Positions 2,228 to 28,251 of a stretch of 38,174 nt of DNA are shown here, in pieces. Source of the DNA: a virus (Duplodnaviria > Heunggongvirae > Uroviricota > Caudoviricetes). Below the pieces are notes generated by a model that made no database searches, was not told the DNA's origin, and worked only from the letters and a program-made list of their open reading frames with translations. Both the position numbers and the translations under genes were made by a program. Where the stretch lies: IMG/VR virus record IMGVR_UViG_2531839455_000003; one strand, 5' to 3'. Each line of letters starts with the position of its first letter. Positions within the stretch are counted from its first letter, which is position 1.

Positions 2228-3337
2228 TCACTCTGTTTCTGCTATCCATTCCGGGATTTTTGCTTCAAGCTCAAGCTGCGTGGTAAAGCCGCTGTTATCA
2301 ATGGTGTGCTCGGCTTTTACAATGATCCAGTCCTGATTATCAATCTCGCTTTTAAATCCTGTTACCGTACCATGCATTTCGGGGTAGAGTTCTGCACGTC
2401 CACGCGCCAGCGTGATGGAGAATGATGCGGCTCCGCGTTGTAGTTGCTGCCACTTTGCCGCCGCTGCGCGTCTTGCTGCCTGTTCGTTCTGATAGGTCTT
2501 GCGTAACACAAACACATTGCCTTCCGCGCCTTCCATATAATCTCCTTCACGGCTGCTGCTTTTCTCCTTTTGGGGTTTTGGTGGTTTGCGGCGTTTCACG
2601 CTGACTTTTTTCTTTTTCCCGTAATTAAGATCAAGCCAGTAGGCGCGTACCCCCGTATACGCCTCGCGGTCAGCAATACGGAACTGATGGCGATCGCCGC
2701 TGCTGCGTGTAATGGCGAACGAGGGCAACGGCTGGCCCTGTGCGTTCACGCCACCACCTGGCATGATGAATAACAGATTACCGCTTTTTACCGTGGTGAT
2801 TGCGCCCAGCATTTCCGCCATGCGCGTAAGGAAGGACATGTCGCTTTCTTCGGTCTGGTCGGCGTGGTCGATTTCGATATCCATCAGCATTTCGCTGATT
2901 TGCGGTTTCAGACCATACCGATGAGCGATGGCGGATACCACACGCTCAACGGTCACATCATGCCAGGACACCTCACGTTTAACGTTAAATTCATCCCGAA
3001 AATCTGCGCTTCTGGCTGAAACAGTCAGCCTGTCCGGCGGTCCTTCGTGAGCGATTTCATCAACAATGTAAGTGCCTTTTTCTGTCAGCGGTTCTCCCTT
3101 CCAGCCAATGAGAACCGTCAGGCGCGCGCCCCGTGGCGGTAGCTGCAACTGACCATCCGCATCATCCAGCGTGATGGTGAGCTGGTCCGCCTCAAATCCC
3201 CGGTTGTCGGTCAGTGACAGGCTCATCAGGCGCTCTGCCACGCCTGACAGCGTTTTACCCTCCGCGAGAATATCAAAATCCGGCATTTTCACGGGGTCTG
3301 TGCTCTGACTGAGCAATTGCATGGTGGTGTCGGTCAT
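2228..3337 (-). CDS. D: tail protein gpD (late control gene D family)
   Basis: Start trimmed to ATG at 3337 (MTDTTMQLLSQ..., SD GGGAGGGAA); the longer ORF to 3469 has no SD. Matches the P2 D protein family by memory. Confidence 0.88.
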   Translation of the reverse strand: MTDTTMQLLSQSTDPVKMPDFDILAEGKTLSGVAERLMSLSLTDNRGFEADQLTITLDDADGQLQLPPRGARLTVLIGWKGEPLTEKGTYIVDEIAHEGPPDRLTVSARSADFRDEFNVKREVSWHDVTVERVVSAIAHRYGLKPQISEMLMDIEIDHADQTEESDMSFLTRMAEMLGAITTVKSGNLLFIMPGGGVNAQGQPLPSFAITRSSGDRHQFRIADREAYTGVRAYWLDLNYGKKKKVSVKRRKPPKPQKEKSSSREGDYMEGAEGNVFVLRKTYQNEQAARRAAAAKWQQLQRGAASFSITLARGRAELYPEMHGTVTGFKSEIDNQDWIIVKAEHTIDNSGFTTQLELEAKIPEWIAETE

Positions 3338-3494
3338 CTGTTCCCTCCCTGTGCGGCATGGTCGCATGTGCGTGCGGAGGGGGTTACTGCTTTTTGTTGT
3401 CGCTGGGTCGGGAGAACGGCGCAGGGGTGAGATTACGCGCGTGGTGGGTGATGATTGTTGCCGAATCATTTAACGGATACAAGGGGCTGAAGCT

Positions 3495-5785: not shown

Positions 5786-8579
5786 TATCCGGGTCGCTTT
5801 CAGCGCCGTTGACAGGCTGACCCGGCCTGCCGAAAACGCCCGCCGCCTGATGGGGCAGTTTGGTGACTCCATCCAGCGAACGCAGGGGGCGATCAAAAAT
5901 CTCGAGCGTCAGGCGCGTTCATTTGAGCGCGCCCGTGACGCTGTCAGTAAAGCGGATGCTGGCATCGTGAAAGCACGACGCCAGCTTAACGCCCTTAATC
6001 AGTTACAACGCACGGGTACAGTGCTCAGCGAAAAACAACAAAAGCTGATGCAGCAGTTAAGCACCCGGCTTGAACGCCTGAATGAATCGCGCACACGGGA
6101 AATTCAGAAAATGCGGGAGCTTGGCGGAGAGCTGAAACGCCACGGCATTTCCCTGACAGGCAGCGATAACACCATCCAGCAGGCCATCAGACGCACCGAA
6201 CAGTACAACAACCAGCTTGAACGCGAACGGCAGGCGCTTGCGCGTGTAACGCGGGCGCGTGAGCGGTATTCGCGCGCGCAGGAAACAGCGGGAAAACTGA
6301 AAACAGGTGGTGCGCTGGCAATTGGTGCGGCAGCGGCGGGCGGCTATGCTGCCGGGCGTTTTTTGCAGCCTGCGATCGGGTTCGGCAAAGAGATGTCCCG
6401 CGTTCAGGCACTGACGCGAATCGACCAGAACAGCCCGCAGTTTAAGGCGCTGCGTGAGCAGGCGTTAAAACTTGGCTCTGAAACGCAGTTCACCGCAGGC
6501 GATGCCGCCAGTGGACAGGCATTTCTTGCAATGGCTGGCTTCACTCCGCAGGCCATTCAGGCTGCGCTTCCCGGCGTGCTGAGCATGGCAACGGCTGGCG
6601 GTATGGATCTCGGCGAGACGGCAGATATTGGCTCAAATATCCTGACGCAGTTCGGCCTTTCTGCTGACCAGATGGACCGGGTCGGTGACACACTCACCGC
6701 AGCGTTTACCCGTACCAACACTGACCTTCGCGCACTGGGCGAAACCATGAAATATGCAGGTCCGGTGGCGGGTAAGCTGGGAATATCGCTGGAGCAGGCC
6801 GCAGCGATGGCTGGCGTGCTGGCGAATATGGGCATCAGAGGGAGTGATGCCGGGACGGCAATGCGTGCCAGCCTGGCTCGTCTGGCATCACCGCCAAAGG
6901 CGGCGGCAGAAGCTCTGAAAGAGCTGGGCGTGTCCGTCTCGGATGCCGGGGGCAAAATGCGCCCGATGGAGGATGTGCTGGCCGACCTTTATAAAGCCAC
7001 CCGCAAATACGGGGAAGTTGACCGGGTATCGTTCTTTAAGGACATTGCCGGAGAAGAGGCTTTCACATCGTTTATGGCGCTCGTTGATGCAGCGGGTGAC
7101 GGTTCCTTACCCAAACTGAGAAAAGAACTTGAAGGCGCGCGCGGTGAGGCTGAACGCACAGCAAAGGTTATGGCCAACAACCTTGACGGCGATCTGAAAT
7201 CACTCGGCAGTGCATGGGAAGGGGTGCGCATCCGCATTGCAGATCTGATTGACGGTCCGCTGCGTTCTGTCACGCAGTGGCTCACGCGGGTGGTCTCAAA
7301 AGTGACGGCACTGGCGCAGGCCCATCCGGCACTGACGCGCCAGTTACTGATAGCGGGAGGTGCACTGCTGGCGACAACAGCAACGGTTGGTTCGTTGTCT
7401 CTGGTTATTGGGGTGCTTCACGGGAAGCTGGCTACGTTACGTCTCGGTTTTTCTCTCCTGACCGGATCAATGAATGCTGTCAGGATCCTGCCAGCACTAT
7501 GGGGAATGGTGACGGGTTCCGTTTCTTTACTGGGAGGCGCTATCGGGGCGCTGATCAGTCCGGTTGGTCTTATCGTGGCTGCGCTTGCCGGAGCTGCCGT
7601 TCTTATCTGGAAATACTGGGATCCCATCAGGGCATTTTTTGCCGGGGTGTTCAGCGGGATTATGGAAAGGCTGACCCCGTTGCGCGAAACCTTTGAACGG
7701 TTTGGTCCTGTTTTTGACGCAATCGGAAGCGGGATCAGCCAGGTGTTTAACTGGTTTAAATCGCTGCTGTCACCGATGGAGTCCAGCAAGGAAACGCTGG
7801 ATAAATGTACCAGTGCTGGCGAGATATTCGGTAACGTTCTTGGCGGTGCGTTACAGCTTGTTCTGACACCTGCAAAAATGCTACTGGATACGCTGGCGTG
7901 GATACTTGAAAAACTTGGCGTCCTTCCGGATGAAGCGGAAAAGGCGCGCAAGAAAATCGAAGACGCACAGCGTGCGGCCATTCTTCAGGACAAGGTTGCC
8001 TTGCTTCAGGGGGACCTTGCGAAAATCAATCCGCCGAAGCCTGTGGAAAATGGCAATGGCACCGGAGGTGATAAACCCAAAGACAACAAACCGCTCACAG
8101 ACAGCAATACCGGGACGCTACGCAGACTCAGCAAAATTGCTGATAACACAGGTAAGCTGGTTGATGAGACGAAAAAACGCATTGGCCCTGGCGATATTGT
8201 CTTTAAGAACCTGCCCCGCGCACTTGCTGTTCGTGGGGAGTGGCAGGAGCGGAAGATTGCGCAGGTCAGTAAGCCTGCCCCCGCAATTAATATCACACCC
8301 GTAGTCCCGGCTCCGCTGCCTCCGGCGCTGGTCCCTGTTGTTGCGGCCAGCTCCCGCCCGGTGGCGGAGGCCATACGATCGCCAGTGGCATCAGTTCCTG
8401 CAGCTTCCCGTAATCGGGAGCCTGCTGTCTCCAGATTTGGCGGTGAAATTCATGTTCATCTGCATAACGTTGTTACGCAGAATCCCCGCGAACTGGCGAA
8501 ACTGGTCGGTGAAATGGTCAGGGCAGAGATGGAACGGCGCGCCCGTGCCGGACGTGGCAGTTTTTACGATAAAGATTGA
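5763..8579 (+). CDS. T: tail tape-measure protein gpT
   Basis: 938 aa, coiled-coil-rich N-terminus, hydrophobic Gly/Ala-rich middle; follows E/E'. Confidence 0.92.
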   Translation: MQIMKTLDIRVAFSAVDRLTRPAENARRLMGQFGDSIQRTQGAIKNLERQARSFERARDAVSKADAGIVKARRQLNALNQLQRTGTVLSEKQQKLMQQLSTRLERLNESRTREIQKMRELGGELKRHGISLTGSDNTIQQAIRRTEQYNNQLERERQALARVTRARERYSRAQETAGKLKTGGALAIGAAAAGGYAAGRFLQPAIGFGKEMSRVQALTRIDQNSPQFKALREQALKLGSETQFTAGDAASGQAFLAMAGFTPQAIQAALPGVLSMATAGGMDLGETADIGSNILTQFGLSADQMDRVGDTLTAAFTRTNTDLRALGETMKYAGPVAGKLGISLEQAAAMAGVLANMGIRGSDAGTAMRASLARLASPPKAAAEALKELGVSVSDAGGKMRPMEDVLADLYKATRKYGEVDRVSFFKDIAGEEAFTSFMALVDAAGDGSLPKLRKELEGARGEAERTAKVMANNLDGDLKSLGSAWEGVRIRIADLIDGPLRSVTQWLTRVVSKVTALAQAHPALTRQLLIAGGALLATTATVGSLSLVIGVLHGKLATLRLGFSLLTGSMNAVRILPALWGMVTGSVSLLGGAIGALISPVGLIVAALAGAAVLIWKYWDPIRAFFAGVFSGIMERLTPLRETFERFGPVFDAIGSGISQVFNWFKSLLSPMESSKETLDKCTSAGEIFGNVLGGALQLVLTPAKMLLDTLAWILEKLGVLPDEAEKARKKIEDAQRAAILQDKVALLQGDLAKINPPKPVENGNGTGGDKPKDNKPLTDSNTGTLRRLSKIADNTGKLVDETKKRIGPGDIVFKNLPRALAVRGEWQERKIAQVSKPAPAINITPVVPAPLPPALVPVVAASSRPVAEAIRSPVASVPAASRNREPAVSRFGGEIHVHLHNVVTQNPRELAKLVGEMVRAEMERRARAGRGSFYDKD

Positions 8580-9091: not shown

Positions 9092-9117
9092 AACCGCTAA
9101 TGGCCAGATTAGCGGTT
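9092..9117. terminator. bidirectional terminator hairpin between convergent U and invertase genes
   Basis: AACCGCTAAT-GGCCAG-ATTAGCGGTT, perfect 10-bp stem, T-rich downstream (ATTTTGTTTTCTG), A-rich upstream; overlaps the invertase stop codon. Confidence 0.6.
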
Positions 9118-9702
9118 ATTTTGTTTTCTGACTCTTCTCTATTGTTCCACTTGATTCTCCTGCGGGGTGGTAACGATAAATCGTCGATGTACCAATGCCG
9201 TAAATTATTGCCAGTTGTTTTCTGTCGTGACCGTTTTTAATCAGCCTTGCTATTTGCTCATGCTGTTCTTTTGTCAGCTTCGGTCGACGTCCGCCTGTGC
9301 GCCCCCGTGCGCGCGCTGCCGCCAGTCCGGCCAGTGTACGTTCAACAATTAATTCACGTTCCATTTCAGCCAGGGCACCCATCACGTGGAAGAAAAAACG
9401 CCCCATTGGAGAAGATGTATCTATGCTGTCGGTCAGACTGCGAAAATTAATCCCTCGCTCCCGTAGTTCCCCGACGAGAGAAATCAGATGTTTCATGCTT
9501 CGCCCGAGGCGATCCAGTTTCCAGACAACCAGCGTGTCACCTTTTGAAGACGCTTTAAAGCGCGTTTTAATCCCGGTCGGTCTGTCTTTGTCCCGCTTAA
9601 TTTATCTTCAAATATTTGTTCACATCCTGCACAAACAAGAGCGTTTCGTTGCAGGTCTGTATTCTGGTCATTTGTTGATACCCTGACATAGCCAATCAGC
9701 AT
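9116..9702 (-). pseudogene. pin: Pin/Gin/Hin-family serine DNA invertase, disrupted by a 1-nt frameshift
   Basis: N-terminal ORF MLIGYVRVSTNDQNTDLQRNALVCAGCEQIFEDKLSGT...LKRLQK (catalytic Ser motif) and C-terminal ORF MKHLISLVGELRERGINFRSLTDSIDTSSPMGRFFFHVMGALAEMEREL are in different frames. Reading AAG-GTG-ACA-CGC as AAG-G-GT-GAC-ACG restores ...KGDTLVVWKLDRLGRSMKHL, so one G is missing from a G run at about plus 9540. Confidence 0.85.
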
Positions 9703-9756
9703 TCTGAATCTCCCGTCCAAAAGCGCAAATCATGCCATGCAGGCCGGAAACGGCCA

Positions 9757-9782
9757 TTATCTAAAACCTCGGTTTACAGGAA
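9757..9782. other. gix/pix-like 26-bp inversion crossover site (right)
   Basis: TTATCTAAAACCTCGGTTTACAGGAA; one mismatch from the Mu gixL sequence as I recall it; lies beside the invertase 5' end. Confidence 0.8.
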
Positions 9783-10727
9783 ACGGTAAATCAGGCTTCT
9801 GGCGCATTACAGAAAAACCAGAACGGCGCAGATATTCCGGGAAAAGATACCTTCACCAAAAATATTGGGGCCTGCCGCGCATATAGCGCATGGCTGGATA
9901 TTGGTGGCGATAGTCAGGTCTGGACAACCGCGCAATTTATTTCGTGGCTGGAGAGTCAGGGAGCATTTAACCATCCTTACTGGATGTGCAAAGGCTCATG
10001 GGCTTATGCAAATAATAAGGTCATTACAGATACAGGTTGCGGAAATATTTGTCTTGCAGGTGCTGTGGTGGAAGTTATTGGCACTCGCGGCGCAATGACC
10101 ATACGCGTTACTACGCCGAGCACGTCCAGCGGTGGCGGAATTACTAACGCTCAATTCACTTATATTAATCATGGTGATGCTTATGCTCCTGGCTGGCGAC
10201 GAGACTACAACACGAAAAACCAGCAGCCTGCATTTGCTTTAGGGCAAACAGGAAGCAGGGTTGCAAATGATAAAGCTGTTGGCTGGAACTGGAATAGCGG
10301 TGTTTATGATGCAGATATCAGCGGTGCATCGACATTAATCCTCCACTTCAATATGAATGCGGGGAGTTGCCCTGCCGTACAGTTCCGTGTGAATTATAAG
10401 AACGGCGGTATTTTTTATCGTTCAGCACGTGATGGTTATGGATTTGAGGCTAACTGGTCAGAGTTTTACACCACAACCCGCAAACCCTCTGCGGGAGATG
10501 TTGGTGCATATACGCAGGCAGAATGTAACTCAAGGTTTATTACAGGTATTCGCCTTGGCGGTCTGTCATCTGTTCAGACATGGAATGGCCCCGGCTGGTC
10601 TGACAGGTCAGGTTATGTCGTTACGGGTTCAGTTAACGGAAACCGTGATGAATTAATTGATACAACTCAGGCAAGGCCAATTCAGTATTGCATTAATGGG
10701 ACGTGGTATAACGCGGGGAGTATTTAA
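9765..10727 (+). CDS. alternative tail-fibre C-terminal variable segment, promoterless and start-less; fused to the constant H N-terminus only after inversion
   Basis: Frame is open from inside the gix site ([15 protein letters not shown]...) to stop at 10725-10727. Shares the site-encoded LGLQETVN and the C-terminal INGTWYN motif with H. Confidence 0.75.
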   Translation, partial: NLGLQETVNQASGALQKNQNGADIPGKDTFTKNIGACRAYSAWLDIGGDSQVWTTAQFISWLESQGAFNHPYWMCKGSWAYANNKVITDTGCGNICLAGAVVEVIGTRGAMTIRVTTPSTSSGGGITNAQFTYINHGDAYAPGWRRDYNTKNQQPAFALGQTGSRVANDKAVGWNWNSGVYDADISGASTLILHFNMNAGSCPAVQFRVNYKNGGIFYRSARDGYGFEANWSEFYTTTRKPSAGDVGAYTQAECNSRFITGIRLGGLSSVQTWNGPGWSDRSGYVVTGSVNGNRDELIDTTQARPIQYCINGTWYNAGSI

Positions 10728-10729
10728 CG

Positions 10730-11263
10730 ATGATGCACTTAAAAAACATTACTGCTGGCAACCCTAAAACAAAAGAGCAATACCAGCTAACAAAGCAATT
10801 TAACATCAAATGGCTTTATTCAGATGATGGAAAAAACTGGTATGAGGAACAAAAGAATTTCCAGCCAGACACTTTGAAAATGGTCTATGGCCATAACGGC
10901 GTTATTATTTGTATTGAAAAGGATGTTTCAGCAATTAATCCGGAAGGCGCAAGCGTCGTTGAATTACCTGATATTACAGCAAATCGCCGTGCTGACATTT
11001 CGGGTAAATGGATGTTCAAAGATGGCGTAGTGGTAAAGCGAACTTATACCGAGGAAGAGCAGAGGCAGCAGGCGGAAAATGAAAAGCAAAGCCTGCTACA
11101 GCTCGTCAGGGATAAAACCCAGCTATGGGACTCACAGCTACGGCTGGGCATCATTTCCGACGAGAATAAACAAAAATTAACAGAGTGGATGTTCTTTGCG
11201 CAGAAAGTCGAATCTACAGACACTTCCAGCCTGCCAGTAACGTTTCCCGAACAACCTGAATGA
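10730..11263 (+). CDS. tail-fibre assembly protein (alternative copy, Tfa/gpG-like)
   Basis: 177 aa; N-terminus MMHLKNITAGNPKTKEQYQLTK... parallels the other tfa copy; follows the alternative fibre segment. Confidence 0.85.
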   Translation: MMHLKNITAGNPKTKEQYQLTKQFNIKWLYSDDGKNWYEEQKNFQPDTLKMVYGHNGVIICIEKDVSAINPEGASVVELPDITANRRADISGKWMFKDGVVVKRTYTEEEQRQQAENEKQSLLQLVRDKTQLWDSQLRLGIISDENKQKLTEWMFFAQKVESTDTSSLPVTFPEQPE

Positions 11264-11266
11264 GAC

Positions 11267-11290
11267 AAGGCCCGATAGCGGGCCTTAATT
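11267..11290. terminator. bidirectional hairpin between the convergent tfa genes
   Basis: AAGGCCCG-ATAG-CGGGCCTT followed by AATTTTTATT. Confidence 0.5.
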
Positions 11291-11291
11291 T

Positions 11292-11819
11292 TTATTCAGG
11301 CTTTTGTGGCCATTCAGGATTTGCCGTATCCACACGGTTGACCAGAACACTGTAGCGTTCCCATGACTCCAGTCGTGCGCGTTCCTCATCCGTCGCCATA
11401 TTCAGCCTGACAGCGCGTTCCAGCGGCTGGATGACTGATTCAGCTTCGGAAAGCAATGCGGCCTTTTGTGATTCGGCCTGTTGTTGCTGTTCGTCAGCCG
11501 TATAAATCCGTTTAACCACAGCTCCGTCCTTAAACATCCACTTTCCTGAATCATCAGCGCGGCGGTTGGCTGTTATATCGGGAACCTCAACGACGCTAAA
11601 ACCTTCAGGGTTAAGCGTGGAGGCATCTTTAGTGATGGCGACAATAATATTATTTGCATCGTAAACAATCTTTATTGTGTCTGGCTGAAAGTTTTTCACT
11701 TCCTCATACCAGTTTTTTCCGTCCTCAGAGTAAAGCCAGATAACTCCGTGTTTCTTTGTTAACTCATACTGTTCCAGTGTTTTAGCGTTACCCGCTTTTA
11801 TGTTCTTTAAGTGCATCAT
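11292..11819 (-). CDS. G: tail-fibre assembly protein (currently expressed copy, gpG-like)
   Basis: 175 aa, [22 protein letters not shown]...; immediately downstream of H on the same strand. Confidence 0.88.
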
Positions 11820-11820
11820 A

Positions 11821-13983
11821 TTAAACGCTCGCTACATTATACCAGGTGCCATTTATATACTTTTGAACGGGTCTGTAATAAACGCCCGCTATATTATCGG
11901 CAGAGTTGGAGCCTGTATCCTGAACATTAATACCAGACAATACATGACCTGACGGGCACTGGAAATTCCATGTTTGCCAGTTGTTCACTCCATAATATTG
12001 CTGTGAACCAAGTCGAACATCTTTCACATATCTGGAATCAAAATTGCCATAATTGCCGGGAATAACTTGCGCACCGCAAAGCCAGTTCCCGTTATTATCC
12101 ATGTACGCCTGACCATCGGTACCATTGGCTGTCCTTGAGTTATTAATCATGTAGATGCCAAATTGCTTATTTCCCAGACCGCCAATCATAAATTTTCGGT
12201 CGGCATGGTCCTGACGGAGCAAGGCCTGGGCGCTATCAGTGTTAACTATATTTTTCCCAAAGATAGCGTTGTTATCGCGCATCTGAATCCACATACCATT
12301 ACCGCTGTTAATAGCAAAACGGTCTGAAAGTGTTTCTCCTGAAACATTAAGGCCACGCCCCATCGAAACAGCGCCAGTAGCGTTATTAATCCATAATGGC
12401 CTTAATCCGTTATAAGTCCCCATGTTGTCACCGGAGTTTGTCAACATGAAGTATGTATTTGAACCATCATTACGAATAAAGAATCCGTAATTACCATAAG
12501 CAATACGTAGGCCGTTTGCTGATTTTGATATGACTTCGCCATTTACAATGGCATTGACAAGAACATACAAAGCATCCCATTTAAGATTCATCAGGTCTTT
12601 TGTTGTGGTGCTTTGTTTGCTTCTCCATTTGAAATATTCATTGCCGTTGTCGCCTGTTTCAAACCACATGTATGAATCAGTGTCACCATCGGCATCATTT
12701 TTAAATCCAATCTTTGCCCAGTCAGTATTTCGAATCCAGGCAAGGATTGAGTCATTTTCAAAAGTAAGCCCACCGGACAAGGTATCGCCATTTTTTTGCA
12801 CGGCGTTACCAGCCCTGTTTACCGTTTCCTGTAAACCGAGGTATTCGATAACAGCGGCAACGGTCGATTTCGCAAGAATATCCCGCCCGACTTCTGTCAG
12901 GGTTGCCAGACTGGCAACATCATTCCCCGTAAAATACGGAAACCTGTCTGCTGCAGTAGCAAGCCCGGCCAGCGCCGTCAGGGTGGCATCTTTCGGTTGC
13001 TTACCCGCAAGCGCGTTAGTCATGGTGGTCGCAAAATTCGGGTCGTTGCCCAGCGCCGCCGCCAGCTCGTTCAGCGTGTTCAGTGCGTCAGGTGAAGAGT
13101 CTACAAGTGCGGCAATCGCGGCCATAACGAAAGCCGTGCTTGCGATTTGGGTATTATTCGTTCCCTGTTGTGCAGTTGGTGTTGTTGGCGTTCCGGTCAG
13201 TGCCGGGCTGTTTAATGGGGCTTTCTTGTTCGTTTCATCCATTACCGCCTTAACCGCTTTTGGTGTCGCTGCCAGCGTTTCAGACGTGCTGTTGGTTGCA
13301 CTGCTGAGCTGGACTATCCCTTTTCGTGCCGTCGTGGCGTCCTGAGCGGTATATTTTCCGTTAGCCAGGTCATACGCGGCCTTAACCGCTTTCGGCGTTG
13401 CAGCCAGCGTTTCAGAATCGCTGTTAGTGGCGCTACTGAGTTGAACAAAGCCTTTTGCGGTCAGCGAGGCATCCGGGTGACGTCGTGACTGTTCATGCTC
13501 TTTCAGTTTGTCATCCACGTAATCCACTGTGGCCATCACCATGGTGTTATCCACGGTAAGCGCCACGGTGGCAGTGCTGGATACGGTCAGAATGGTGCGA
13601 AATGTTTGTGCACGTCCTGACCCTTCGGCAACGGTTGGCTTGTAACTTTCGGCAGTATTGCCTACTGCGATTAAATCGCCGTGCTCATCAAACACACCAA
13701 TTTCCCGGATCCAGAATCCGCCCGTTTCTGGAGGAATAACCAGCTCCGCAATAATGCGGTTCTGATGTGTTGCGTCCAGGATGACGCGATTAACAGTGTG
13801 TCGCCACACCTCATGCACCAGACGGGTCTGCTTACTGTCTGGTGTGGGCAACGTGCCGCCACCGTCGCCCACGGCCATATGAGTCAGGCGGACAGGCTTA
13901 CCATCTGGCGCGGCTGCCTGAGCTAATTTTTTTGCACCCGTATCGGTGATAACGGTTTTAAATTTTCGTGTTGTGGTACTCAT
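11821..13983 (-). CDS. H: tail fibre protein gpH (constant N-terminus plus current variable C-terminus)
   Basis: 720 aa; N-terminus [31 protein letters not shown] is P2 H-like; contains the left gix-like site at 12826-12851 in frame. Confidence 0.92.
12826..12851. other. gix/pix-like 26-bp inversion crossover site (left), inside H
   Basis: TTCCTGTAAACCGAGGTATTCGATAA, inverted relative to the site at 9757-9782. Confidence 0.8.
13247..13446 (-). repeat. intragenic tandem direct repeat in H (two ~68-bp copies, 132-bp period)
   Basis: Copies at 13247-13314 and 13379-13446 encode the repeated peptide [22 protein letters not shown]. Confidence 0.7.
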
Positions 13984-15759: not shown

Positions 15760-16337
15760 TGCGGGCCTCCTGTCGAATCGCTGCCACCTTTAACACCACC
15801 GTGTTTATGCGTATGCACTGTGATGCCGTTTGAGGTGAAATCGCCGCCGCTGTGCGTGATATTGCCGCTCATCTTTCCTCCTTTTGTGACGTCAAGCGTC
15901 GCTGTTCTCAGAAGGTTTGTGCATTCCACGACGGGCGTGTCCAGTGTCACGCTGACGGATGCCTGTAAAGTGGCCGTTTTCATGCCGCTGGCGCTCAGTG
16001 CGCCAGCGTCCGCGTCGTAGCGGAACACCGCGCCGTCCGGCGCGCTGATCACGATTTCTTTCAGGCTTTTGCCGGGGGCCGGATTTGCATCACTCCACAG
16101 GCTGCCAATTATCATGGCGGTTTCCGGGTTGCCGCCAATGCAGGCAATTACCACCTGTTCGCCGGGTGATGGCGGCAGCCATACATTGAAGGCTCCCGCG
16201 CGCGTGGTGTTCCAGCGCAGCCAGCCTGTTTCCAGTTCGCCGCTGCGAACGCGCACGCGCCAGGACTTCTCATCAACTTCAGAGATGATCCCGGTGCGGA
16301 TGATGTTGCTCAGCAGTCGCATGAGTTCTGCGCTCAC
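15756..16337 (-). CDS. V: baseplate spike/assembly protein gpV
   Basis: 193 aa; overlapping stop/start with W. Confidence 0.85.
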   Translation of the reverse strand: MSAELMRLLSNIIRTGIISEVDEKSWRVRVRSGELETGWLRWNTTRAGAFNVWLPPSPGEQVVIACIGGNPETAMIIGSLWSDANPAPGKSLKEIVISAPDGAVFRYDADAGALSASGMKTATLQASVSVTLDTPVVECTNLLRTATLDVTKGGKMSGNITHSGGDFTSNGITVHTHKHGGVKGGSDSTGGPQ

Positions 16338-25617: not shown

Positions 25618-25654
25618 TTGTGCAAATTTGTGCACTATTGTGCATTTGTATAGT
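25618..25654 (+). promoter_or_regulatory. three helically phased TTGTGCA direct repeats with a candidate -10 (TATAGT) upstream of the cargo operon
   Basis: TTGTGCA at 25618, 25628 and 25638 (exact 10-bp spacing); TATAGT at 25649-25654; about 70 nt upstream of ATG 25724. Confidence 0.4.
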
Positions 25655-25723
25655 GAAAAAAATATAGCAGAAAGTATACTTAGCGCCTTGTGGGCTACGT
25701 TAACTTTGCAGGAACATTTGGAA

Positions 25724-27103
25724 ATGAAAAAAATCAATAAAGAAGATTCTAAAAGAACCTTTTTACGTGGATGGTTGCGATTTCTTCGTAGCGTTGAGAG
25801 AGCTAAGAAAAAAAAGCCTGCGCAAGAGAAAAATGGTAGTCTTCGTTTTTCCGATGAAACAACTCCTGTCCAAAACCAAGTCGCTACGTTCATTGAAAAT
25901 ATATCGATTATAAAAGAGTATGACTCATCAATTCTTCGTCGTGACGCAGAGAAGATATTAATACCTAAATATTTTGACTTATATGACAATCCAGAGAAAT
26001 CTCTGCTATTTATTAGTGCAGCCACAAAATTAATTGCAAGAGGTAAATGGAAATCATATATTTTTGATTACAAGAAAAACAAAAAACACTGTCTTGGTCT
26101 TGAGTGTCTATTAGGTGTTGCTCTTACAGCAGCAAGGCAAAGTAATATAAATTTCAAAGATACGATGATTCAGATTAATGGTATCTACCCTAAAGATGAA
26201 CAGTATCTTGAAATTATCAGGGATGTCGGGCTTGTAAAAGAGATTAGTAATGCTGCACCAGGTAAAGTTCTGGACTCTACTGAAGCATCGAAAAAAGCGA
26301 ATCCGAAGAAACGAATCTTCTCTGCTGATAGTATCGGAAAGGAGAATGCTTCTGCCTTTGCCCATGACAGAAAAAATGTCACTGCTGAAAAATTTACCGC
26401 ATACATAAACGAATGCTTAAATGATCATAATTTAAAACTTGTACATGAGGCAGAAAAGCATTTAACTTCCTGCATGGGGGAACTCCTTGATAATGCGGAG
26501 CGGCATTGTGGGTTAGAGCAACGCCCACGCTGGTATTTGAGAGGTTTTGTTAATAATAACGTACGAAACCCCATATGTGAGTTGGCTGTTTTCAATTTTG
26601 GGAAAACTATCAGCGAAACTTTTGATAATTTACCTGAGGATCATTTTTCATTAAGTCAACAAGTTAATCCATACATAAATAAGCATATTAAGAAAAAGGG
26701 TATGTTTAAGGAAGGATTAACAACAGTAGCGGCCTTGCAAGGGCGGGTGAGTTGTAAAAACGAGAAAGAAACTGACAGTTCTGGCACCGGAACAATTGAA
26801 TTATTGAAGTTATTTCAAGATATGCATGATAATCTTAAAAAAATGGGAAGAGATATTAAAGGTGGGATAAAAATGACTTTAATATCTGGTAGTACTCATA
26901 TTAACTTTGATGGATCATATAAATTAAAGCAAAGGTTGGTTAATGACGAGGAAAGTGACATTTTTACTTACCCTTTTAATGATGTAGGGCTTGAATCTGA
27001 ACCGGATCGCAACTATCTTAAGCGTATGAAGGATGCTCGATTTCCTGGAGTTATGATCAATATTCGTTTTCCTCTACCAGAAAACGCCACCCAGCGAACT
27101 TGA
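25724..27103 (+). CDS. cargo gene 1: predicted GHKL/Bergerat-fold ATPase-like protein (possible Ser/His-kinase-type), function unknown
   Basis: 459 aa from the first ATG; AT-rich. N-box-like motif GELLDNAERH (E-x3-N-A-x2-H), then a degenerate G1-like FNFGKT and a G2-like SSGTGTIELL glycine loop in the C-terminal half. Confidence 0.7.
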   Translation: MKKINKEDSKRTFLRGWLRFLRSVERAKKKKPAQEKNGSLRFSDETTPVQNQVATFIENISIIKEYDSSILRRDAEKILIPKYFDLYDNPEKSLLFISAATKLIARGKWKSYIFDYKKNKKHCLGLECLLGVALTAARQSNINFKDTMIQINGIYPKDEQYLEIIRDVGLVKEISNAAPGKVLDSTEASKKANPKKRIFSADSIGKENASAFAHDRKNVTAEKFTAYINECLNDHNLKLVHEAEKHLTSCMGELLDNAERHCGLEQRPRWYLRGFVNNNVRNPICELAVFNFGKTISETFDNLPEDHFSLSQQVNPYINKHIKKKGMFKEGLTTVAALQGRVSCKNEKETDSSGTGTIELLKLFQDMHDNLKKMGRDIKGGIKMTLISGSTHINFDGSYKLKQRLVNDEESDIFTYPFNDVGLESEPDRNYLKRMKDARFPGVMINIRFPLPENATQRT

Positions 27104-27113
27104 GGACAGGTAC

Positions 27114-27458
27114 ATGAAAATGGCTGACATCACCATAGATTTCAATAAGTTAGTAAAAGATAGTAACAAGAAACTTTTTGCTGGACGTTCTAATGGGCGC
27201 CAGGCCTATGATTACTTTAATATAGGGAAATTTTGCACAACCAGTAATGATAGATTATATCTATTGATCCCCAAGGGAATTGTTGTATCAAGCTCATACT
27301 TTCTAGGTATGCTTGAAACGGTTTTGCCGAAATTTTCTTCGCCTAGCGAATTTTATAGTCGCACTGTACTTGATGGTCGTGAATATAAAGAAGGTATGCT
27401 TTCTGAATTAGATAGAGCTGTAAGGAGAGGCTTACATAAAAATGTTCCCTTCTTTTAA
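27114..27458 (+). CDS. cargo gene 2: small cytoplasmic protein, possible STAS-like (anti-sigma-antagonist fold) partner
   Basis: 114 aa, 10 nt after the gene 1 stop (SD GGACAGG). Motif LYLLIPKGIVVSSSYFLGMLETV resembles the beta-strand plus DSSG serine loop of SpoIIAA/RsbV-type STAS domains; assigned by motif only. Confidence 0.6.
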   Translation: MKMADITIDFNKLVKDSNKKLFAGRSNGRQAYDYFNIGKFCTTSNDRLYLLIPKGIVVSSSYFLGMLETVLPKFSSPSEFYSRTVLDGREYKEGMLSELDRAVRRGLHKNVPFF

Positions 27459-28251
27459 AAATATTTTTCAAATCAAAATGACAGCGCTGTCTGTCATTTT
27501 TTTTATATTCCCCGCAGCTTGCTCTGTGACAGATTTTTCCAATAAAGAAAACATTGAATGTAATGAGTCACTTTATCCAAACACGCCTTTTTATATTTCC
27601 GATTCAGGACTTAGTGGTATATCATCACCGTTTTTGTTATCCGGAAACCCGAATGATGGCTTGATGTTTTGTGAAAAGGCAAACGACACCTTTCATAAGT
27701 TATCTCTGGCAAGGGATAACAAAAAAGATTTATTTGCTAATTATTTCAAAGATGTTCCAAATTCCTATGATATATATAATATTGTAAAGGTTCCGGAAAA
27801 TGGTCCAGAGTGGATTTCTATTGGCATCTCTTTATTTGCTTTAGTTTCATCCTTTGTTATTCCTTGTGTTCAACATAGAAAAGAACGTAAAGAAGCTATT
27901 AATGAAGGGTATTGGGTAAGAGAAGTAATTATGCCTAAAATTAATGGGTTGGCATTCGATGTTGTGCAAAGTTTTAAAAACTCCATGGCATTATCAGAAG
28001 AGGAGTTTCTTAGTGTATTCAGTAATACTCTTTTACCAAAACTAGGAGAGTTACGGGATTCATTATATTTGTTTAATAGTTTTCCAGAATTAAATGCAGA
28101 TATTGAAAATCTAGAAAGTATTTGTGACTCCTTGGAGGAAGAAGTTTCCAATCATATAGACTCGCCTAATGAAATAAGAATTTCTGATATATCAATGTTT
28201 CATTCCAAATTAATACAGAAATTAATTTTACTTCATAAGAAGATAGGTTGA
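27442..28251 (+). CDS. cargo gene 3: membrane protein (N-terminal signal/anchor plus internal TM helix), candidate effector
   Basis: 269 aa. Start overlaps the gene 2 end by 17 nt; SD AAGGAGAGG upstream. N-terminal hydrophobic segment MTALSVIFFIFPAAC, internal TM EWISIGISLFALVSSFVIPCV, acidic C-terminal domain. Confidence 0.65.
   Translation: MFPSFKNIFQIKMTALSVIFFIFPAACSVTDFSNKENIECNESLYPNTPFYISDSGLSGISSPFLLSGNPNDGLMFCEKANDTFHKLSLARDNKKDLFANYFKDVPNSYDIYNIVKVPENGPEWISIGISLFALVSSFVIPCVQHRKERKEAINEGYWVREVIMPKINGLAFDVVQSFKNSMALSEEEFLSVFSNTLLPKLGELRDSLYLFNSFPELNADIENLESICDSLEEEVSNHIDSPNEIRISDISMFHSKLIQKLILLHKKIG

Follow-up and report, generated by a model that had tools for sequence, protein, structure and literature searches.

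In the G-segment switch of phage Mu, the Gin invertase acts at 26-bp gix-type sites bounding a segment of about 3 kb, in which two cassettes, each consisting of a fibre end and its chaperone, face one another, and the N-terminal part of the fibre is constant. The same switch, with the gene order seen here, is found at gp43 of Escherichia phage P88 (Xuanwuvirus). Gin, Pin, Cin and Hin are interchangeable; PMC12529663, with its references 63-65, reports that PinE of e14 complements Mu gin and acts on the Mu G segment, that PinQ and PinR (of Qin and Rac) invert the e14 P segment, and that Fels-2 Fin inverts the Hin H segment. These trans-acting members of the Pin family provide a precedent for inversion by the invertase of another prophage, and also for segments that remain invertible after their own invertase has been lost (PMC12529663). 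In the Hin system the enhancer, 65 bp in size, is separated from hix by about 100 bp (PMC3798978). With regard to translation, A_AAG is the classic minimal site for -1 slippage by E. coli ribosomes, which has been seen to compensate a nearby -1 frameshift mutation, a case described as a "savior indel" (PMC5009743). In E. coli, single-base deletions are also suppressed without any programming, at a measured level of about 1-10% (PMC10861913).

A Mu G-type fibre switch in a P2-type prophage

The DNA analysed here (the window, 38,174 nucleotides in full) spans from the start codon of serS to the stop codon of a phage integrase gene, and consists of serS and a complete P88-like E. coli prophage (Xuanwuvirus, Peduoviridae, P2-type). 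The prophage adjoins serS, the same insertion place as in UTI89 and NU14, and presents the P2-type structural gene set in P88 gene order, as established by synteny with P88 and with E. coli prophages. The 49 CDSs tested besides the invertase match those of relatives at 72.6-100% amino-acid identity, 48 of the 49 at 89.6% or more. The sheath, tube, tape-measure and gpU genes form a plus-strand block that converges on a minus-strand baseplate and fibre block, with the invertase gene and the invertible segment in between. A large inversion is ruled out as the origin of these converging blocks, which represent the usual P88/Xuanwuvirus layout. A terminator-like hairpin separates gpU from the invertase gene, and a search upstream of the latter for a consensus sigma-70 promoter found none.

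Matches to the gix-type site were observed twice in the window, against zero expected by chance. The two sites lie in inverted orientation, share the same 2-bp core, and one of them is next to the invertase gene (Table 1); they coincide with the segment limits (9757..12851) given in an earlier note on this DNA. As in Mu, the fibre has a constant N-terminus encoded beyond the segment boundary, and the segment itself carries two alternative C-terminal cassettes on opposite strands, each accompanied by a Caudo_TAP chaperone gene. The first 389 residues of the fibre are common to both orientations, the gix site falling at about codons 378-386, and inverting 9771..12837 in silico generates an intact 700-aa fibre, both orientations thus encoding complete fibres. 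The position of the Fis-dependent recombinational enhancer is predicted, by analogy with Hin and from the near-identity to the 5' region of Mu gin, to be about 100-175 bp from the gix core. The 5' 200 nt of the invertase gene are nearly identical to those of Mu gin, including the A5 run of gin, and a scan with the degenerate Fis motif returned a pair of Fis-like sites 48 bp apart, at 119.5 and 167.5 bp from the core. An annotation for sis is absent from the Mu GenBank record. Apart from an uninterrupted invertase ORF, and from the enhancer, whose presence is predicted, every tested feature of a Mu G-type switch is present.

The locus differs from Mu in residing in a P2-type (Peduoviridae) prophage, in the diverged C-terminal DNA-binding domain of its invertase and in the frameshift in the invertase gene. 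Its invertase region is 98.2% identical to that of P88 at the DNA level; however, in P88 the gene is unbroken, with a length of 588 bp and a GTG start, whereas the window has an A4 run and an ATG start. This ATG (9700-9702) also contrasts with the GTG found in other E. coli relatives and in Mu gin, and would, if anything, increase translation initiation of the broken gene.

Table 1. Features of the invertase and fibre-switch region, and invertase loci in related assemblies. Positions refer to the window unless a contig is named.
Feature	Location	Strand	Remarks
Bidirectional terminator-like hairpin	9092..9117	both	between gpU and invertase gene
Gin-type serine DNA invertase gene	9116..9702	-	587 bp; pseudogene by standard decoding
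C-terminal fragment ORF	9116..9496	-	126 codons from Met70, MKHLISLVG; end of catalytic domain and HTH_7
N-terminal fragment ORF	9493..9702	-	69 codons; 54 native and 15 out-of-frame codons (VTRWLSGNWIASGEA), then stop
A4 run	9542..9545	-	T4 on plus strand; remnant of ancestral A5; coding nt 158-161, codons 53-54
Fis-dependent recombinational enhancer (expected position)	9595..9670	-	
Left gix-type crossover site	9757..9782	+	26 bp; TTATCTAAAACCTCGGTTTACAGGAA; core TC at 9769-9770
Invertible segment	9771..12837	.	3,067 bp between cores
Alternative fibre C-terminal cassette	9783..10727	+	currently silent; fused in frame by inversion (700-aa fibre)
Alternative tail-fibre assembly chaperone	10730..11263	+	
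Tail-fibre assembly chaperone	11292..11819	-	belongs to currently expressed fibre end
Tail-fibre gene, present orientation	11821..13983	-	720 aa; variable part inside segment
Right gix-type crossover site	12826..12851	-	26 bp; TTATCGAATACCTCGGTTTACAGGAA; core TC at 12838-12839
Second-allele invertase, identical deletion	L003 5874-6472		
Second-allele invertase, identical deletion	L007 94-692		
Second-allele invertase, identical deletion	L008 76-674		
Same lineage, A4	L023 (GCA_012216805.1)		100% identical to window over 12,808 bp
Same lineage, A4	L013/L026 (GCA_000713505.1)		L013 100% over 6,781 bp; L026 1 mismatch in 9,125 bp
Same lineage, A4	L009/L019 (GCA_049980045.1)		1 mismatch in 16,163 bp
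Same lineage, A4	L025 (GCA_000713105.1)		same allele
Same lineage, A4	L024 (GCA_000713575.1)		same allele
Same lineage, A4	L018 (GCA_022871305.1)		same allele; segment flipped

An inherited one-base deletion in the invertase gene

Invertases of the Gin, Pin, Cin and Hin type are encoded by a single uninterrupted ORF of about 190 aa, whereas in the window the gene is divided into ORFs of 69 and 126 codons. The open frame of the N-terminal fragment covers 9493..9720 (minus strand), the ATG at 9702 being the likely start; its native part runs MLIGYVRVSTNDQ...RLQK and includes YVRVSTNDQ with the catalytic Ser. Insertion of one base at the AAAAGG stretch restores a continuous 195-aa ORF, the length observed in intact relatives (588 bp/195 aa). 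The repaired protein matches the Pfam families Resolvase (E=1.3e-50) and HTH_7 (E=9e-14), and presents both the S9 motif (the serine nucleophile of YVRVST) of a resolvase catalytic domain and an HTH DNA-binding domain that also matches the DNA-binding domain of Hin (1hcr). Its best PDB matches are to Mu Gin (4m6f and 3uj3). Identity to Mu Gin is 86% overall, and within residues 1-119 the two proteins differ by K39R only.

To locate the lost base, the window was compared with its relatives. At the site of the lesion, CTTCAAAAAGGTGAC (A5 G2) is found in P88, in Mu gin and in three E. coli prophages, O111 8E and ARS-C101 among them, and the window reads CTTCAAAAGGTGAC (A4 G2). Since every comparator has A5 G2, the lost base was an A of the A5 run (T5 to T4 on the plus strand), and a G3 to G2 change is ruled out as the lesion. 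The repaired protein is identical for either missing base, because AAA and AAG both encode Lys. The ancestral reading, CAAAAAGG, is found in Mu gin, in P88, in 47 of 47 viral contigs and in 453 of the 454 complete E. coli genomes containing this stretch of the invertase, where 453 denotes those of intact length. Among IMG/VR contigs, the 42-mer with A5 occurs in 47 and the 41-mer with A4 in none; the exact search with the A4 41-mer was likewise without a match in GTDB representative genomes. The invertase allele of the window was not found in the RefSeq complete E. coli genomes, in which the best match reached 98.9%. The earlier note had proposed that a one-base deletion in a homopolymer splits the invertase, with the C-terminal 126 codons in another frame and the two fragments overlapping as ATGA. 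The split, the frame of the C-terminal part (9116..9496) and the overlap (9496..9493, minus strand) are all borne out, as is the homopolymer; the run, however, is not a GGG near 9540, as had been thought, and the native N-terminal codons number 54 instead of 60. Looking for three G in the reads, as the earlier note advised, would accordingly have addressed the wrong run, the lesion being in the A run.

A clearly different allele (of the 199-aa type, with a GTG start and a different 3' end) has undergone the same A5 to A4 deletion; it was found in the complete genome WP4-S17-ESBL-03 and, with L007 and L008 as representatives, in about 36 independent Logan assemblies. This second frameshifted lineage is uninformative as to the orientation of the segment, since L003 and L007 present one and the same arm and L008 breaks off within the site. 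Together with the different lesions of L010 and L014 described below, this makes loss of the invertase recurrent in the P88-like prophage family.

A full-length invertase cannot arise from the window by standard decoding. Residues 55-69 (GDTLVVWKLDRLGRS) are encoded in neither fragment and, by homology with resolvases, would contain the conserved Asp/Arg active-site residues, which makes complementation between the fragments unlikely. The designation of the gene as probably inactive in the earlier note therefore stands as far as the absence of a full-length product by standard decoding is concerned; given that both fragments lack residues 55-69, standard translation would be expected to yield no active invertase, and it is at this level that we infer the loss of activity.

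A deletion within a homopolymer invites the explanation that the true sequence is A5, that the invertase is intact and that the shorter run reflects a sequencing or assembly error, an alternative also raised in the earlier note. Several lines of evidence contradict it. A tblastn search with 50 annotated proteins from close relatives found all genes except the invertase intact in the window, with no other frame-breaking indel among the 49 CDSs; the remaining single-base indels with respect to relatives are intergenic or locally compensated, which rules out a generally noisy assembly. The A4 run is shared by six independent assemblies of the prophage lineage, read directly at the DNA level and deposited in unrelated accession series, five of which are 99.99-100% identical to the window over the compared stretch (Table 1). 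An intact (A5) invertase was found in none of the 23 contigs read that carry the exact tape-measure protein of the lineage. The identical deletion in the roughly 36 Logan assemblies of the second allele also argues against an artefact, as does the split tape-measure gene of WP4-S17-ESBL-03, which recurs in the independent Logan assembly L008, so that the frameshifts of that genome look real as well. Because the same A4 occurs in six assemblies and no intact invertase in the 23 tape-measure contigs, the deletion is inherited and goes back to the ancestor of the sampled lineage, and sequencing error can effectively be dismissed. As the frameshift is genuine, the gene is rightly annotated as a pseudogene, and silent "repair" of it should be avoided. 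In both L018 and L023 the invertase slot has no product on record, as expected were the gene annotated as a pseudogene. The exact 69-aa product with its frameshift tail is encoded in 35 contigs of public assemblies, mostly of the second-allele lineage. Counts of contigs with the 126-aa product were not used as evidence for the deletion, since they are inflated by a GTG-start mis-call (L011) and by other lesions (L010, L014).

Orientation of the segment and the source of inversion

Searches of public assemblies for the exact fibre proteins returned the present form in 40 contigs and the flipped form in 2, with one flipped assembly (L018) directly verified to carry the frameshift. L018 equals the in-silico flipped window at 16,102 of 16,103 bases, without gaps and with the same A4; the single difference is a SNP private to L018. 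The exchange maps within a 25-nt block of identity that holds the gix core and is bordered by polymorphic half-sites on the outer side and by diverged arms on the inner side. The segment hence exists in both orientations, joined at the core, within the frameshifted lineage. In complete genomes, where the invertase is almost always intact, the two junction types are found in 125 genomes each; the 40:2 skew therefore suggests that inversions have become rare in the frameshifted lineage, an argument weakened by the clonal sampling of the contigs. The switch is probably slowed rather than dead. The earlier note had considered it locked unless an invertase acts in trans; strict locking does not agree with the joint presence of A4 and the opposite orientation in L018, and the proviso of action in trans fits the data. 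Both gix sites and the two fibre/chaperone cassettes are intact, as the enhancer probably is too, and the segment can therefore still serve as a competent substrate. With 226 bp between it and the gix core, the deletion falls beyond the 100-175 bp expected for the enhancer, and the enhancer is thus probably untouched by it; disruption of this element by the deletion is unlikely on the basis of these distances, the Fis motif scan being too degenerate to prove the point.

We propose that inherited loss of one A from the conserved A5 run (codons 53-54) breaks the Gin-type invertase, and that standard translation would stop after a 69-aa N-terminal fragment; reinitiation at the ATGA overlap could then add the 126-aa C-terminal fragment, which could still bind DNA. 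The cis-acting elements are kept (the enhancer probably), leaving the segment invertible, and inversion has probably taken place in the lineage after the deletion, rarely, through a putative invertase of the Gin/Pin/Cin/Hin family that another part of the host genome would supply in trans. Supply in trans by a member of this family is the most likely origin of the residual activity, and we favor it with somewhat better than even confidence. Related invertase genes are common in E. coli, with matches at the DNA level in 1,097 of 5,426 genomes and up to four places per genome. Unlike in the Pin-family cases, the helper of the window lineage is putative, by analogy with those systems, and the sole partner prophage identified (lambdoid, Lom-Stf; L012/L024) speaks against the proposal, as its invertase is reduced to a remnant of 64 aa in the complete genome taken as its proxy.

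The order of events matters to this reading. With no A5 member of the lineage found, deletion first and inversion later is the parsimonious order, and inversion would on these grounds have followed the deletion. The switch would instead be truly locked if A5 to A4 had arisen independently in two sublineages that were already oppositely oriented, with no inversion after the deletion. The presence of the same deletion in a clearly different allele (L003, L007, L008) indicates that the run is mutable and can change recurrently, which makes an independent second origin in a flipped background conceivable, and other lesions strike the invertase in relatives L010 and L014. Nonetheless, a single base in 16 kb separates L018 from the window, the two have all allele-specific SNPs in common, the 23 tape-measure contigs include no A5 member, and two identical rare events in such a shallow clade would be unparsimonious; we regard this scenario as improbable. 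An even smaller likelihood, close to negligible, attaches to a flip of L018 by RecA-dependent homologous recombination between the inverted repeats, without a site-specific invertase. The arms do share a perfect 25-nt block, and 25 nt is approximately the minimal length for RecA-dependent recombination in E. coli. This places the block at the lower limit, however, with arms just 79% complementary overall, and the gix core lies within the junction, precisely where a Gin-type exchange would place it.

The residual activity could alternatively originate in the broken gene itself, if slippage on A_AAG remade the exact wild-type 195-aa invertase at a few percent or less and this sufficed for rare inversion. 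The deletion changed CAA_AAA_GGT to CAA_AAG_G, and the zero frame now carries A_AAG, a shift-prone site, at the deletion site. Frame arithmetic predicts that a tRNA-Lys slipping by -1 from AAG to AAA would next meet GGT and thus restore the exact wild-type sequence. Around the site both frames stay open for about 35 codons, the second allele has undergone the same deletion, and inversion that still occurs, if rarely, is in keeping with a small amount of invertase. Both the tetranucleotide and its frame relation match exactly what is described for the "savior indel" (PMC5009743); yet, in contrast to those cases, the window has no stimulator, its split arrangement is unconserved and its full-length product is hypothetical. 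The downstream RNA fold (z = 0.36) provides no stimulatory element, and no SD-like motif was found upstream of the slip site. Furthermore, the invertase is a tetramer and gin-type genes are weakly expressed, so that a 1% dose may give far less than 1% of the activity. The combination of a stimulator and a conserved two-frame arrangement that characterizes programmed -1 frameshifting is absent, relatives having a single ORF in 453 of 454 genomes and 47 of 47 contigs; any leaky decoding would therefore be adventitious and not programmed. Taken together, these data make slippage an unlikely source of the flip, albeit the least unlikely of the alternatives to a helper in trans. A more speculative extension, to which we assign a distinctly lower likelihood, is that A5 to A4 constitutes a recurrent, self-suppressing "dimmer" that operates via A_AAG, cuts switching by orders of magnitude and has arisen at least twice. 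Were this so, fibre switching would be lowered, not abolished, in two alleles that are each present in dozens of assemblies, and the possible self-suppressing A_AAG slip is the only element that would be new.

The locus is a case of ordinary prophage gene decay and variation in a textbook system, in which invertase pseudogenes and their rescue in trans have both been described. Its additions are modest: a corrected lesion, the proof that it is real and comparative evidence of switch turnover. A tail-fibre switch can outlive its own invertase, and the host range of phage induced from this lineage would therefore be largely, though not permanently, set by one fibre type. Comparison of near-identical public assemblies also provides a cheap test of switch locking.

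Related prophages and further observations

Additional lesions were noted in the related assemblies. In L003 the fibre and tape-measure genes are frameshifted too, and in L008 the tape-measure gene is split, which suggests decaying prophages. L010 presents a separate 1-nt deletion near codon 13 of the invertase (at about 5800-6000), and in L014 (1-290) the start codon and 5' flank of the invertase gene are replaced by unrelated sequence.

Within the window, a plus-strand block of three ORFs (491, 114 and 269 aa; 25628-28251) lies between the portal and replication endonuclease genes and has no match in Pfam or PADLOC; in the relative JNE082640 this place is occupied by ParM/partition genes and others. 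The block looks like a P2-type variable cargo hotspot and possibly encodes a defence system. The gpD-like ORF (2228-3469, minus strand) is open for 413 codons from its first ATG, with a Phage_GPD domain at residues 135-393. Start-site calls for this gene differ between records, its length being given as 369 aa in public records of the same lineage versus 266 aa plus a fragment in RefSeq relatives. Three intergenic homopolymers differ in length from those of relatives, with no coding effect: A7 at about 19395, against A6 in every relative covering the position; A6 at about 21382, against A5 in P88; and T7 at about 35443, against T6 in JNE082640.

The serS prophage lineage, with its A4 invertase, was also encountered in L012 (1-6000) and L024 (8986-12808; GCA_000713575.1), where a different invertible segment, joined to a lambdoid Lom-Stf (1057 aa), follows beyond the invertase-side gix site. 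This junction implies an exchange between two prophages, probably through a large chromosomal inversion. Site-specific and RecA-dependent routes are indistinguishable here, because the crossover interval comprises at least 108 nt of identity; with this interval and the 64-aa remnant in the proxy genome, the junction is ambiguous as evidence for a helper invertase. In E. coli 504239 (NZ_CP025859.1; L027, 9795-9989), where the lambdoid prophage is seen at its native place near ompW/yciE/trpA, what is left of its invertase beside that Stf segment is a 64-aa remnant, and this prophage is thus another instance of an invertible fibre segment without a working cognate invertase.
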